DNA from: an uncultured Thermofilaceae archaeon
Lineage (GTDB): Archaea > Thermoproteota > Thermoprotei > Thermofilales > B69-G16
NCBI GenBank assembly: GCA_964501905.1
Contig: CAZCTW010000006.1
Coordinates: 4,311 to 68,310 of the forward strand
Reading direction: 5' to 3'
Length of the DNA: 64,000 nt
The translations under genes and the position numbers were made by a program. A model generated the notes under the pieces. It ran no database searches. It was not told where the DNA came from and saw nothing but the letters and a program-made list of their open reading frames with translations. Position 1 is the stretch's first letter; every line of letters starts with the position of its first letter. Shown here piece after piece: positions 6,935 to 11,944 of the stretch.

Positions 6935-7315
6935 ATGAAAAAAGTTCTACGCGGAGAAGAGAGGTATACCTTTTTTAAGGAAATATATGAAAAGTATGGA
7001 AAACCGATAGATTTCAAATTTAAGCGGAAAAAGCGGCTTTATCTCTTCAAGGATGGAACTGTAATATCGATTACAGATGGGAATGGGGAGTATCTAGTTG
7101 AAGTATTCAAACCTAGCTTCTGGTTTAAAGGGCAGTTTACGAAAATCGCAGTTGTTTATTCCGCCGCTACTATTTTCGTAGCAATAGTTGCGGCGTTAAT
7201 ACACGTTATAAGCGGGGCGGGACCTTTAGTTTTAAGTACGGGGTTGATTTTATTGTCGTGTTTCACTCTAATTGAGTTGGCAAACGCCATTAAAAAATAC
7301 AAGCCTATGCTATAA
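6935..7315 (+). CDS. Hypothetical small membrane protein
   Basis: 126-aa ATG ORF with a soluble N-terminal half and two C-terminal hydrophobic helices. No recognisable family. Confidence 0.55.
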   Translation: MKKVLRGEERYTFFKEIYEKYGKPIDFKFKRKKRLYLFKDGTVISITDGNGEYLVEVFKPSFWFKGQFTKIAVVYSAATIFVAIVAALIHVISGAGPLVLSTGLILLSCFTLIELANAIKKYKPML

Positions 7316-7615
7316 CAGCTCGTAAACCAGCTCACCCTTTTCCTCGTCGAAAAAGGCTTTTATCAAGTTTTGGTTTTGAAGAAGCCTTACACTTTTGTAT
7401 AGTTCAGCTGGAGATATACTTTGTTTTTTAGCCCATTTATAGAGAGAAGACTTGGCTACTCTCCCTGATTTCCTTATAAAGGATAAAATTTTATCCTCGA
7501 GACCTGTAACCTTGACTTCTTCTCTCTGAGGTTTTTCCTCCGGCTCGGGTTTCTCCTCTTCAAAAAAGGATAAAAGATCCTTTGAACTTTCCTCCTTTTT
7601 CCTTTTCCGGGACAT
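7310..7615 (-). CDS. Hypothetical protein with charged N-terminal tail and wHTH-like C-terminal half
   Basis: 101 aa with a K/E-rich tail. The segment LEDKILSFIRKSGRVAKSSLYKWAKKQSISPAELYKSVRLLQNQNLI resembles a winged helix. Confidence 0.55.
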   Translation of the reverse strand: MSRKRKKEESSKDLLSFFEEEKPEPEEKPQREEVKVTGLEDKILSFIRKSGRVAKSSLYKWAKKQSISPAELYKSVRLLQNQNLIKAFFDEEKGELVYELL

Positions 7616-7994
7616 TACCTCCCCGAGACTATATGGATGATTGTGTACTTTAATATGTTCTGTTGGCTAATGCATGCTTTTTTCTTCTTTCTATTGCCAT
7701 GGAAGATAACTATGAAAATACATAGCGGAAGCCGATAGAATCGCTGCTAAGCATTCCACATAAATATTTTACCTTTTTATCCAGTAGAGAGTACAATGTG
7801 AATATTGTCAGTAATGGATTTATGATGGGGTTCACGTCTTCTATTGGTTTAACGTGGATTTTGAAAATTTATTGCGGCTCATTACTACATCAGAGTTATT
7901 TTTATTCTGGCCTGCATGTCTCTTTGTTTTAATCAAAACGATATTATTCCGTGATAGCTGAATAGGTCGATGTTATTTCTGCCTTTTTCTATTT

Positions 7995-8458
7995 TCACCG
8001 GTCTCTGTCGGCTTCAGATGCGACTGAAAGAGCTATGTCGTTTACCGGATCGTAGATTATTTCCGAGATTTCTCCGGTCCACTGGGATTCGTGAGCCATA
8101 GTTTCCTTCCACAAAAGTCTTACCTCGTCCTCTCTTATATCGTAGCGGTGGACGTGGCTGTATTTATTGTAGAGGAGGATTCTACGTTTTTCTTTATCAT
8201 AGACCGCGGGGGCGTGAACCCAACCCCCGAAGAATATATAATCATCACGGCCTCCACGGCATTATAGGTGTCTCCTCCGGATGTAGGCTCTGGTCCTACT
8301 AGGCCGAATTTATAAATATCATCTTCACCGTTTTTTAGAAAATAGGCCTCAGCTTCAAATGCTAAGTTGAAATACAGGACTCCGCGGTGATAACGGAGCC
8401 CAAAAATCCCACCAGAACCCCATTCTGGTCCATACCTAGGCGAGAACCTGTAGAGTTT
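7995..8458 (-). pseudogene. Decayed gene remnant (no start codon, one frameshift), family not identified
   Basis: Two protein-like minus-strand reading frames join only through a frameshift. One reads ...YGPEWGSGGIFGLRYHRGVLYFNLAFEAEAYFLKNGEDDIYKFGLVGPEPTSGGDTYNA. The other reads RGGRDDYIFFGGWVHAPAVYDKEKRRILLYNKYSHVHRYDIREDEVRLLWKETMAHESQWTGEISEIIYDPVNDIALSV. The shift lies between 8138 and 8261. An in-frame stop at 8459-8461 cuts off the N-terminus. Confidence 0.5.
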
Positions 8459-8542
8459 CTATAGCAATAAAACGCACCTCTACGTATTAAAAGCAGGGGT
8501 AGTTAAAATAGTATTGTTATTGTTATATTATTGGGGTAAAGC

Positions 8543-9913
8543 TTGGAGGCTCGCTACGTCTGCGAAAACTGTGGATGGAGTAGAGAAGTAGCCGAAGCTC
8601 TTCACGTCTGCTGTCCTAAATGTGGCGGGACCGTAAATATAGAGTACAGACTAGATTCCATAAAGCCTTTGAGGTTTGACGATAGCGTTGCGGGAATATG
8701 GAGGTATTCCGGTTTATTGCCGGAGTTCTCTGAGAAGCCTACTCTAGGAGAGGGGGGTACGTTCTTAAGCAATGCTAAGAGACTTAGACAAGTTTTCAAA
8801 CTGAATAACCTCTATATTAAAGATGAAAGGAGAAACCCAACCGGAGCTTTTACTGATAGAGGAGCCGCCATAGTAGTCGCCGCCGCCTTATATTATGGCT
8901 ACAAGGAAATATGGTCTCGAGTTGGGGGTAATATAGCGGCTTCTCTTTCGGCTTACGCCGCTGCCTTCGACTTGAAGCTCTTTGTGGATTTTAGAGAATA
9001 CCCCCAACTGGGTAAGCTCTATCAGATAATATTCTTTGGGGGCGAAATAGTCGACCGCGAAAAGCCCGGACAAACAGTCTATAGCGTCACTCCACAAGAC
9101 CCATTCCTCGTCGAAGGCTACAAGACTATAGCTCTCGAGCTCTTCGAAGATTTAGGAAATATCGACGCCTTAATCGTGCCTATGGGCCACGGAGCTTTAG
9201 CGTTTTCTATGTGGAAAGGATTTAAAGAACTTAAAGAAGCCGGCTTTCTAGACGATATACCCCAGATTATCGGGGTGCAGTCTTCAAACTGCCAACCTAT
9301 AGTTGAGGCATTTAGGAAAAGTTTAGACAAGCCCGTTGAGGGCAGGGAGTGCTTTACGATTGCCAGCGAACTGCTGGTGAGGCGTCCTCTGCGGGGGCGG
9401 GACGCCATCAAGGCGTTGAGGGAAACGAGAGGTTACGCTATAGCGGTGAGCGATAGTGAGATAATCGAGGGATTGAAAATGTTGGCCAAGTACGAGGGTT
9501 TACTCGTCGAGACGGCTTCAGCGGCGGCTGTCGCCGCTCTAAAGCGACTAGTGGAGGAGAAGTTCGTCGAAAAAGATGATGTTGTGGTAGTTTTAGCTAC
9601 GGGTGCTGGACTTAAACACCCTCAAACTCTCTTGAGGATTCTCGAAGTGAAGGATTTGAGCGAGACTCCGCGGATAGGCAGGACCGGCTTGACTATACTG
9701 GAGTTCTTAGCTAAAGATGAAATGCACGGGTACGCTATATGGAAGAGACTGGCCCAGGAGAAAAACGTCTCTAAACCTACGGTTTATTACCATTTGAAGA
9801 GATTGGAGGAACTGGGATTAATTAAGAAGCTGTCCTATCCGGATAAGAAAATTTTCACTATTACAGATAGAGGAGTGAAAGTTTTAAGAAAATTGAAATT
9901 CCGCTATTATTAA
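8543..9913 (+). CDS. Threonine-synthase-like fold-type II PLP-family protein lacking the Schiff-base lysine, with N-terminal Zn-ribbon and C-terminal PadR-type wHTH
   Basis: 456 aa with a TTG start. ThrC-type N-terminus (CENCG...CPKCGG, WRYSGLLP, LGEGGT). The canonical NPTGSFKDRG motif reads NPTGAFTDRG, with Thr104 (codon ACT, 8852-8854) in place of the lysine. The C-terminal ~80 aa (LTILEFLAKDEMHGYAIWKRL...VYYHLKRLEELGLIKK) look like a PadR/ArsR winged helix. Confidence 0.9.
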   Translation: MEARYVCENCGWSREVAEALHVCCPKCGGTVNIEYRLDSIKPLRFDDSVAGIWRYSGLLPEFSEKPTLGEGGTFLSNAKRLRQVFKLNNLYIKDERRNPTGAFTDRGAAIVVAAALYYGYKEIWSRVGGNIAASLSAYAAAFDLKLFVDFREYPQLGKLYQIIFFGGEIVDREKPGQTVYSVTPQDPFLVEGYKTIALELFEDLGNIDALIVPMGHGALAFSMWKGFKELKEAGFLDDIPQIIGVQSSNCQPIVEAFRKSLDKPVEGRECFTIASELLVRRPLRGRDAIKALRETRGYAIAVSDSEIIEGLKMLAKYEGLLVETASAAAVAALKRLVEEKFVEKDDVVVVLATGAGLKHPQTLLRILEVKDLSETPRIGRTGLTILEFLAKDEMHGYAIWKRLAQEKNVSKPTVYYHLKRLEELGLIKKLSYPDKKIFTITDRGVKVLRKLKFRYY

Positions 9914-10078: not shown

Positions 10079-10810
10079 GTGAGCATGATGCCGAGACTAG
10101 GCTCGAAGATTATCTCTATAGCGGCGGTTTTTACAGCGTTGGTGGCTTTGACGACCGCTGTTTTTCAGATATATATTCCGGAAACTAAGGGGTATTTTAA
10201 CATGGGCGAGATCGTGACGTACACCACGGCATTACTCTTTGGACCCATAGTGAGTTGTATAGCTGGTGGATTAGGCTCGGCTCTAGCTGATGTAATGGCA
10301 GGCTATTACATATATGCTTCCGCAACGCTGGTAATTAAAGGAGTTGAGAGTTTCGTAGTAGGATACTTATCTAGAAAACTCCCAAAGCTTAAGGGTAAAG
10401 CGTTAGGGTCGCTTACAGTTTTCTCGTTGCTCGCTATATTCACCGGGTTATGGATATACTTGTATAGCGGAACGTTCACGTTTACACTTGCTTTAGGACA
10501 GTACGAGATATTTACGCTAACCACGTTGAGCATAGTCGTATACATGCTGGCGGTTATGTTTTTCGTGGTAGCCGCGGTGGTGCTCTATAGATTAGGCGAG
10601 TTAGCGACGCTCGTTGTTTCAACACTTACTGGAGGAGCTGTTATGGTGACGGGATATTACCTCTATGAAAGCTTAGTTTTGAACGTGGTTGCGCTGGCGG
10701 AAATACCGTTTAATATAGGCCAAGCTATTATAGGCGCTATTGGAGCAATACCGCTGTACACTACGTTAAAAAACACGCTTAAACAATACCAAGGTGTCGT
10801 TCTTGATTGA
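10079..10810 (+). CDS. Membrane protein resembling an ECF-transporter S (substrate-capture) component
   Basis: 243 aa with about 6 TM helices and small-residue-rich helices (GPIVSCIAGGLGSALADVMAGY). It overlaps the next gene by 17 nt. Confidence 0.7.
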   Translation: MSMMPRLGSKIISIAAVFTALVALTTAVFQIYIPETKGYFNMGEIVTYTTALLFGPIVSCIAGGLGSALADVMAGYYIYASATLVIKGVESFVVGYLSRKLPKLKGKALGSLTVFSLLAIFTGLWIYLYSGTFTFTLALGQYEIFTLTTLSIVVYMLAVMFFVVAAVVLYRLGELATLVVSTLTGGAVMVTGYYLYESLVLNVVALAEIPFNIGQAIIGAIGAIPLYTTLKNTLKQYQGVVLD

Positions 10811-11779
10811 AGGAAAGCTACCTCCTGACTTATTGGAGAGGTATTTGAGCATTTTAAGAAAGCACGACCCCAGAGTTATTGTGGGAGCTCAAATAGGCGA
10901 GGATGCCGCGCTAATAGATATGGGCGATAGACTGCTCGTCGTACACTCTGATCCTATCACCGGGGCGATAACGAGGATAGGTTGGTACGTGGTCCACATA
11001 GTCGCCAATGATGTAGCGACGAGAGGAGCTAAGCCGAGGTGGTTTTTGCCCGTTGTAATGCTTCCATTGGATTGGGAAGATAGGGCAGGGGAAGTTTTTA
11101 GGGATATGAGAGAGGCGATAGACGAGATAGGAGCGTATATTGTAGGTGGGCATACCGAGTTTACGCCTGGTTTAAATAGACCTATAATATCGATGACCGC
11201 CCTAGGAGAAGTAGAGAAAACAAAATACGTTATGACGAAGAATTGTAGGCCAGGAGATGATATAATTTTAACTAAAGGTGTCGCCATAGAGGGGACTTCG
11301 ATTATAGCGAATGAGCTGTACGATTATTTAAAAGAGAATATTGATGAAGATATCCTTCAAAGGGCGAGAGCCCTCTCAAAACAGATAAGCGTGGTGAAAG
11401 AGGCTTTAATAGCTGTTAAAAGCGGAGAAGTTCACGCGATGCACGATCCTACTGAAGGGGCGTAGCAAATGGATTATTAGAGTTATCGCTTGCATCGGGG
11501 TACGGGTTTATAGCATATGAAGAGAATATGATAATTCTACCGGAGACGGAGGTTATTTTGAATATTGTAAAAGCCGATCCGTTAACGACAATCAGCTCCG
11601 GAAGTTTATTGATAGTATCGCCTCCTAGTTCAACAGAAAAAATATTAAGAAATTTGGAAAAGGCGGGAATAAAAGCCTCAAAAATAGGGGAAATCCTTGA
11701 GGATCCAGAGGAAAGGGTAATTGTCAGGAAGGACGGGAAGAAGATGAGGATATCAGGTTATATAAAGGAGAATTTATGA
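10794..11779 (+). pseudogene. AIR-synthase-related (PurM-fold, HypE/ThiL-like) protein interrupted by a 1-nt frameshift
   Basis: The N-terminal part (10794-11465) reads GEDAALIDMGD...HSDPITG...HDPTEGA*. The expected continuation G-VANGLLELSLASGYGF...SSGSLLIV is in another frame from 11459 to 11779. The switch sits in the G4 run at 11457-11460. Confidence 0.8.
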
Positions 11780-11944
11780 GAGGTACTTGAAAAAGTGTTA
11801 AAATAACACTCTCGAGAAAACTCACTTTAATAGTAGTGAGAAACTATTATAATCTCTAACACATTGTTACTTGAATGGAGGTGAGCGAAGGTAAACCCTT
11901 TTAAGCTCTCGCGTAGGGAAGAGGAGTATCTAGAGGCTATATAC

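Follow-up and report, generated by a model that had tools for sequence, protein, structure and literature searches.

A Lys-less threonine synthase-like protein with a PadR-type winged helix in an uncultured Thermofilaceae archaeon, a candidate vitamin B6-sensing regulator

Introduction

The joining of an enzyme-derived sensor to a DNA-binding domain is an established principle of transcription regulation, found in the MocR/PdxR proteins and, in Archaea, in ThiR and RbkR. ThiR (Rodionov et al. 2017, J Bacteriol) reportedly carries a ThiN-like domain and a DNA-binding domain and acts as a thiamine regulator of Archaea. RbkR consists of a riboflavin kinase, with the catalytic activity kept, and a helix-turn-helix. 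In the literature searched, no vitamin B6 regulator of the ThiR/RbkR kind was found. PdxR, a MocR protein, controls pdxST, pdxK and the importer gene pdxU and often binds the region between itself and a divergent target; it binds between pdxR and pdxST, and its effector is pyridoxal 5'-phosphate (PLP) (PMC5320631). Archaea are reported to have no MocR regulators (PMC5320631), and regulators were outside the scope of a 2023 survey on the synthesis and salvage of PLP (PMC9997740). Here we describe a gene at positions 8543-9913 of a 64,000-nt stretch of DNA (the window) from an uncultured Thermofilaceae archaeon (assembly GCA_964501905.1, contig CAZCTW010000006.1, positions 4,311 to 68,310). The gene encodes a threonine synthase (ThrC)-like domain without the Schiff-base Lys, fused to a PadR-type winged helix. 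With a probability of about 60%, the protein is a non-catalytic transcription regulator that senses PLP or another form of B6, an archaeal analogue of bacterial PdxR. This reading is based on the architecture of the protein, the family-wide loss of the Lys, the retention of the PLP pocket, the genomic linkage of the gene and a candidate operator in a sister subclade; from these we infer the ligand, the direction of regulation and the DNA binding.

The fusion protein resembles PdxR and the other MocR proteins (GabR, TauR) in that a PLP-enzyme-derived sensor is fused to a winged helix. In the MocR proteins the winged helix is N-terminal and of GntR type, and the sensor is an aminotransferase-like domain of fold-type I that keeps its Lys, whereas the fusion family has a C-terminal PadR-type winged helix, a fold-type II ThrC sensor, no Lys and archaeal carriers. 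The origin of the fusion family is independent of MocR. Compared with threonine synthases (2zsj, 1uim, 2d1f, 6cgq), the protein has the same fold at about 30% identity, the Zn-ribbon and most PLP-pocket motifs; it differs in the missing Schiff-base Lys, the added DNA-binding domain and scores below the curated cut-offs. Like ThiR and RbkR, which control the synthesis and uptake genes of the vitamin concerned, it would combine an archaeal vitamin-related enzyme domain with a DNA-binding domain, although the enzyme folds and the vitamins are different. It is like PadR and LmrR in its C-terminal domain, which passes the PadR threshold and has winged-helix topology, and in the candidate operators of a sister subclade, which are palindromic as for PadR dimers. 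Classical PadR proteins have about 110-180 amino acids (aa) and sense the ligand at the dimer interface or the C-terminal helix; the fusion protein has a 370-aa enzyme-derived domain on the N-terminal side.

Protein architecture and the Schiff-base position

The features of the gene are as follows.

8543..9913, plus strand: whole gene, with Zn-ribbon, Lys-less ThrC fold, linker and PadR winged helix; 456 aa
8561..8626, plus strand: N-terminal Zn-ribbon, CxxC...CxxC, residues 7-28; pattern as in archaeal ThrC
8741..9604, plus strand: fold-type II PLP-enzyme (PALP/ThrC) domain, residues 67-354, the proposed ligand sensor; from Pfam, phmmer and Foldseek
8852..8854, plus strand: codon ACT of Thr104, at the Schiff-base Lys position; from the phmmer alignment to threonine synthases in the PDB
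9617..9658, plus strand: disordered interdomain linker, residues 359-372; predicted local distance difference test (pLDDT) below 50 in the AlphaFold2 model
9695..9889, plus strand: PadR-type winged helix-turn-helix, residues 385-449, with recognition helix VYYHLKRLEELG; from Pfam and AlphaFold2

The open reading frame (ORF) begins with a TTG start codon. An earlier note on this DNA, made from the sequence alone, had read the first ~370 aa as ThrC-like and the C-terminus as a winged helix of PadR type, and both assignments were confirmed. Residues 67-354 match PALP (Pfam, E 1.2e-51), and the CxxC...CxxC motif is present. In a phmmer search of the PDB, residues 52-373 were aligned to the threonine synthases of Aquifex (2zsj, E 2.6e-42), Mycobacterium (2d1f) and Thermus (1uim). 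The AlphaFold2 model, built with 50 homologues in the alignment, has a mean pLDDT of 89.8, and its best PDB matches are all threonine synthases (Foldseek, E 7e-28 to 1e-24), with 2zsj at the top (E 7e-28, target TM-score 0.84). Residues 385-449 match PadR (PF03551) with 47.4 bits against a gathering cut-off of 27 (E 2e-12). The C-terminal topology in the model, at a pLDDT of ~90, is that of a winged helix: helices at 380-391, 396-407 and 411-423, strands at 427-431 and 436-440, and a helix at 442-455.

In the phmmer alignment, NPTGAFTDRG of the window protein stands opposite NPTGSFKDRG of 2zsj, 2d1f and 1uim, which places Thr104 at the position of the Schiff-base Lys. The codon check agreed with the earlier note: ACT is two substitutions away from AAA or AAG. 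For the wider comparison, 269 sequences were aligned to the family profile, 130 with the winged helix and 139 relatives without it. The residues at the Schiff-base position were distributed as follows.

Fusion proteins (n = 130): L 40, I 29, R 22, V 12, T 11, M 5, F 4; A, N, S and Y 1 each; K 2; gap 1
Relatives without winged helix (n = 139): Lys 135; the four exceptions are mostly truncated fragments

The Lys is missing in 127/130 fusion proteins (two have Lys and one has a gap), and because the loss is common to proteins of the same architecture, it is not a matter of chance or error; the judgment of the earlier note that a simple sequencing error is unlikely is borne out. A sequencing error or pseudogene was also rejected on the grounds that the frame is intact, that the protein aligns end to end with 75%-identity homologues and that the loss is family-wide. 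The two fusion proteins with Lys, the cluster representatives P0152 (NPTSSFKDRS) and P0162 (NPTNSFKDRA), are nested in an Arg-type subclade, and their Lys could be an Arg-to-Lys reversion or a retained ancestral state.

The PLP pocket of the fusion proteins is conserved at least as well as that of the Lys-bearing relatives. The kept motifs are N98-P-T-G-(S/A)-F-x-D105-R106 (N98-P99 in 96-98% and D105-R106 in 99% of the fusion family), G129-N130, E191-G-x-K194-T195, the glycine loop G215-x-G217 and T353-G-x-G-L-K358 (T353 in 98%). The phosphate-binding loop, which the earlier note had taken to be degenerate, is not: the PMGHGAL segment of the window protein retains the G-x-G glycines of the family, and Gly217 is present in 100% of the fusion proteins. 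A replacement for the Schiff-base residue is not apparent from conservation in the alignment, as no Lys is conserved specifically in the fusion family. K93, K158, K194, K225 and K358 were considered as substitute active-site Lys residues and rejected, since they are conserved equally in the Lys-bearing relatives. The substrate-phosphate Arg position, which we take to be Arg160 of Thermus ThrC, is Arg in 0/130 fusion proteins; as an argument this is weak, since it is Arg in only 27% of the Lys-bearing comparison set.

Family distribution and database naming

The phyletic survey proposed in the earlier note showed that the protein is not a singleton and belongs to a widespread family filed under NF004170/PRK05638. 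About 50 homologues with PALP and PadR, several of them named 'threonine synthase', were obtained from a search of 5.8 billion proteins and came from Thermoproteales, Bathyarchaeia, Odinarchaeia and Nitrososphaerota assemblies. More homologues came to light when 1.84 billion cluster representatives were searched with a profile. The 129 fusion tips of a maximum-likelihood PALP-domain tree all group in one clade (support 0.86) that contains the 'Arg-type' and a 'hydrophobic-type' subclade. The window protein belongs to a T/I group of 15 tips (support 0.996). Also nested inside the fusion clade are six proteins that have the Lys and no fusion, so that one or two origins of the family are possible. 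No description of the ThrC-PadR fusion architecture was found in full-text literature searches.

The best NCBIfam match of the window protein is the threonine-synthase model NF004170 (PRK05638, 442 positions), which covers the full length including the winged helix. The score of 292.4 is below the cut-off of 421, and the scores against NF006050 (224.8 vs 303) and TIGR00260 (134.9 vs 167.1) are also below the curated cut-offs. The highest NF004170 scorers read NPTGSFRDR and carry the winged helix; L006 and L007 (genomes G198 and G046), with this motif and a winged-helix C-terminus, reach 700 bits against the 'equivalog' model. NF004170 itself therefore describes Lys-less proteins, and the name 'threonine synthase' of NF004170/PRK05638 is probably wrong for the whole fusion family.

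A separate bacterial family (P0067-P0120; Anaerolineae, Phototrophicaceae and others) was also seen, in which a ThrC-like domain is followed by a C-terminal receiver domain (PF00072) and the Schiff-base Lys is kept.

Genome content and linkage to vitamin B6 genes

The genome of the window (2.0 Mb, 30 contigs, 98.7% complete) encodes a canonical ThrC of 372 aa with its own Zn-ribbon and NPTGSFKDRG on another contig (C4), which is the second thrC that the earlier note had suggested searching for. IlvA and a TrpB-like PLP-dependent enzyme (PRK12391) are also encoded. PdxS (PF01680) was not found in this genome at 98.7% completeness, nor was a PdxK/ThiD-type kinase (PF08543), which is present in 14/14 control genomes. 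There are eight PF07155 paralogues. As the genome has PLP enzymes and neither PdxS nor the PF08543 kinase, B6 must come from outside, and the organism is likely a B6 auxotroph that depends on salvage.

The gene following the fusion gene is of interest for B6 uptake.

10079..10810, plus strand: membrane protein like an energy-coupling factor (ECF)-type S-component (PF07155, PdxU/PdxU2-HmpT family), the proposed regulated B6 importer; from Pfam and the PDB match to HmpT

It starts 165 bp downstream of the fusion gene on the same strand. The sole PDB match of its product is HmpT (4hzu_S, E 6e-11), with no RibU chain matched, and Glu41 is conserved between the two. HmpT binds pyridoxamine (PMC4860826), and PdxU and PdxU2/HmpT (both COG4720/PF07155), together with P5PA, are the only characterised prokaryotic B6 carriers in the 2023 survey (PMC9997740). 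A PF07155 neighbour is also found in the 74%- and 63%-identical relatives, is divergent in a 44%-identical relative and in a Nitrososphaerota relative, and is present in a Bathyarchaeia relative; these loci are among L026, L028, L030, L033 and L056.

Linkage was counted in 301 genomes sampled evenly from the phylum, of which 89 have a full-length fusion gene (carriers) and 212 do not. In 52/89 carriers, from many families, the distance from the fusion gene to a PF07155 gene is no more than ~1 kb (2.5 kb in one case), and the PF07155 gene is downstream in the same direction or divergent; the chance expectation for this adjacency is ~1%, as a 1.6-Mb genome has about three such genes. Six further genomes have pdxS and the fusion gene in divergent orientation, 155-190 bp apart, and of these genomes five (G127, G055, G079, G135 and G157) belong to genus g19 and the sixth is G270. 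Gene partners (PF07155 in 52/89 and pdxS in 6/89 carriers) and divergent layout are the same as for PdxR, a likeness that is one of functional analogy only. PdxS is present in 14/89 carriers vs 126/212 non-carriers (Fisher p = 1e-12; the genomes counted share ancestry and are not independent samples). These neighbours point to vitamin B6 (PLP) as the likely ligand and to B6 uptake or synthesis genes as the likely targets; the earlier note had named O-phosphohomoserine, threonine or homoserine as ligands and amino-acid biosynthesis promoters as targets, which the neighbours do not favour. Elsewhere (G101:C17 and G063:C24), other PF07155 genes lie 2-5 kb from pdxS with the fusion gene at a different place, a second and weaker link between PF07155 and B6.

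Promoter regions and candidate operators

Twenty fusion loci, taken from a diverse set of genomes, were searched for operators. In the sister subclade, 16/20 loci have ATATATAAG-N6/7-CCTAnATATAGG with its end 2-10 nt upstream of the start codon, and the centre of an AT-rich (TATA) box is ~27 nt upstream of the ATG. In Archaea, leaderless transcripts usually begin at this distance from their TATA box, so the 12-bp palindrome CCTATATATAGG falls between that box and the point where transcription begins, which is the classic position for an archaeal repressor. In an exact pattern scan, the palindrome was found once per genome, at the fusion promoter, in six genomes, and it is a candidate operator of the sister subclade. 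Divergent partner genes are separated from the fusion gene by just 60-190 bp, and one AT-rich box could serve both directions. The following sequence is given as an example.

Sister-subclade candidate operator: CCTACATATAGG, example protein P0016

A wider regulon was sought by exact pattern scan and none was obtained, as the other perfect copies are inside ORFs or between convergent genes. In one locus (L072, G272:C1:30393), a perfect CCTATATATAGG was seen 22 nt upstream of a gene for a 201-aa predicted membrane protein with no PF07155 match, which may be a further regulon member. In genus g19 (L058-L066), the best PF07155 gene is far from the fusion gene, which adjoins pdxS where pdxS is present; a conserved, related element CCTTAATATAAGG, sometimes doubled, was seen just upstream of the TATA-like box of that PF07155 gene. 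It may be a second operator type, seen in genomes too close to one another to count as independent.

The promoter region of the fusion gene in the window is as follows.

8471..8542, unstranded: 72-bp promoter region between the fusion gene and a divergent DUF2139 remnant; TATA-like ATTAAAAG, and a GTAGTTAAAATAGT block in common with the 74%-identical L026

An operator of the CCTAnATATAGG type between TATA and start was not found in 8283-8542, and the sole match in the window's own genome is unrelated (C1:128). The palindrome was also not found upstream of the S-component gene of the window. The recognition helix of the window protein, VYYHLKRLEELG, differs from that of the rest of the family, VYQHLxELExxG. 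When the regions upstream of the gene and of the S-component gene were compared within the clade of the window protein (window, L026/L027, L028, G174, G292, L056), no operator was definable; the comparison gave just short common blocks (GTAGTTAAAATAGT) and AT-rich palindromes indistinguishable from TATA elements, such as TTAAAGTACTTTAA in L026 and ATTTAAGTCTTAAAT in G174.

Proposed mechanism and alternative explanations

With the Schiff-base Lys lost and the rest of the pocket kept, PLP would no longer be held covalently and no catalysis would take place. Because the pocket residues are retained, the ThrC-derived domain probably still binds PLP or a related phosphorylated B6 vitamer (pyridoxamine or pyridoxine 5'-phosphate) reversibly, and it would in this way report the cellular B6 level. 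Since ThrC enzymes form dimers, as do PadR proteins, the fusion protein should bind a two-fold symmetric operator. Ligand occupancy would be passed via the linker to the two PadR winged helices and alter DNA binding, so that they attach to or release a symmetric operator in the promoter of the gene itself and in that of the importer gene or of pdxS. The expected outcome is control over the transcription of the fusion gene and of the adjacent PdxU/PdxU2-like importer gene, with pdxS as the partner in other genomes. Such a module would tune B6 uptake in an organism dependent on external B6. The general proposal of the earlier note, that a catalytically dead ThrC fold with a winged helix would act as a ligand-sensing regulator analogous to but distinct from MocR/GabR, is supported by three results: the Lys loss tracks the fusion, a canonical thrC is encoded separately and the sister subclade has a palindrome at the promoters of its fusion genes.

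Several observations weigh against a B6-sensing regulator. The candidate operator CCTATATATAGG was not found upstream of the window's gene or of its closest relatives (G174, G292 and L026). His84 of HmpT is Lys in the S-component of the window, and PF07155 also includes riboflavin carriers (RibU). Neither PF07155 nor pdxS linkage is seen in 31/89 carriers, and many non-carriers also have no PdxS, including most of the window's own order. Flavin-related genes (flavin mononucleotide reductase, UbiX/UbiD) follow the S-component in two relatives, L030 and L033, and some Bathyarchaeia-type genomes have a thrC-like gene with the Lys in divergent orientation to the fusion gene, which would fit a link to threonine.

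The last of these observations, made in G021, G101 and L030, leads to the alternative that survives best, although it is doubtful: a ligand-sensing regulator whose effector is not free B6. O-phosphohomoserine, threonine, homoserine or a PLP-amino-acid aldimine would be sensed, in the last case with PLP as a permanent non-covalent co-sensor, as PLP and GABA (gamma-aminobutyrate) are in GabR. The sensor domain descends from ThrC, and a PLP site without the Lys can still form external aldimines with amino acids, as is generally known from Lys mutants of PLP enzymes. Against such an effector, the substrate-phosphate position is never Arg in the 130 fusion proteins (although it is Arg in just 27% of the Lys-bearing relatives), the genes that recur nearby are pdxS and that of a PdxU/HmpT-family carrier and not those of the threonine pathway, and thrC of the window's genome is on another contig.

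It is improbable that the ThrC-like domain is blind to ligands and serves as a dimerisation or scaffold module of a PadR repressor acting on an importer of riboflavin or another vitamin. In Pfam the neighbour is called 'riboflavin transporter S component', the flavin genes of L030 and L033 would agree with such an importer, and the dimeric state of ThrC enzymes would suit a dimerisation role. PLP-pocket residues as conserved as in active relatives, or more so, are not expected of a mere scaffold; linkage to pdxS and the low frequency of PdxS among carriers are B6-specific, and the S-component of the window matches HmpT and no RibU chain in the PDB. A working threonine synthase with an extra domain can hardly be what is encoded, for although the best NCBIfam model, with a full-length match, and the source databases give the protein and its homologues that name, the Schiff-base Lys is missing here and in 127/130 family members, including the top NF004170 scorers, no substitute Lys was found, every curated cut-off is missed and a canonical thrC is present elsewhere in the genome.

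If the B6-sensing regulator is real, the fusion family fills a gap in archaeal vitamin B6 regulation, and it is a clear case in which an enzyme with a covalent cofactor became a reversible cofactor sensor through the loss of one residue, independently of MocR and in a different PLP fold. Genes annotated as 'threonine synthase' (NF004170/PRK05638) would then be misnamed, which distorts metabolic reconstructions of Thermoproteota, Bathyarchaeia, Nitrososphaeria and Asgard genomes, and the linked PF07155 genes would be candidate archaeal B6 importers. The rarity of PdxS in carriers would identify a good number of these archaea as auxotrophic for B6, a help in attempts to cultivate them.

Other features of the locus

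A third gene follows the S-component gene.

10794..11803, plus strand: AIR-synthase-family gene (ThiL/HypE/SelD-like), the third gene of the clade's module; intact in relatives, frameshifted near 11460 here

The gene product has 337 aa and is intact in L026 (L026:5502-6515) and L028; here the gene is split into ORFs 10794-11465 and 11528-11779, and the frameshift is either real or an assembly error. At its start it shares 17 nt with the end of the S-component gene, an overlap suggestive of co-translation. The three co-directional genes might form a complete B6 salvage unit, with the Lys-less ThrC as a reversible PLP gauge, the PdxU2-like S-component and an ATP-using AIRS-fold enzyme that replaces pyridoxal kinase non-orthologously and traps the imported vitamer; this is a speculative extension of the B6-sensing regulator and rather unlikely to hold as a whole.

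On the other side of the fusion gene, the DUF2139 remnant (7891-8470, minus strand) was seen to correspond to an intact gene of 472 aa that is divergent from the fusion gene in L026. Amino acids 1-157 (with a frameshift at 8246) and 435-470 survive, and ~280 codons are deleted. The 0.9-kb ORF-free gap at 7616-8542 is due to the decay of this gene. Beyond the gap, at 7310-7615 (minus strand), a 101-aa protein is encoded that has a Lys/Glu-rich N-terminus and a weak MarR-like winged-helix match (E 9e-4) and is conserved beside glutamine synthetase in L026.

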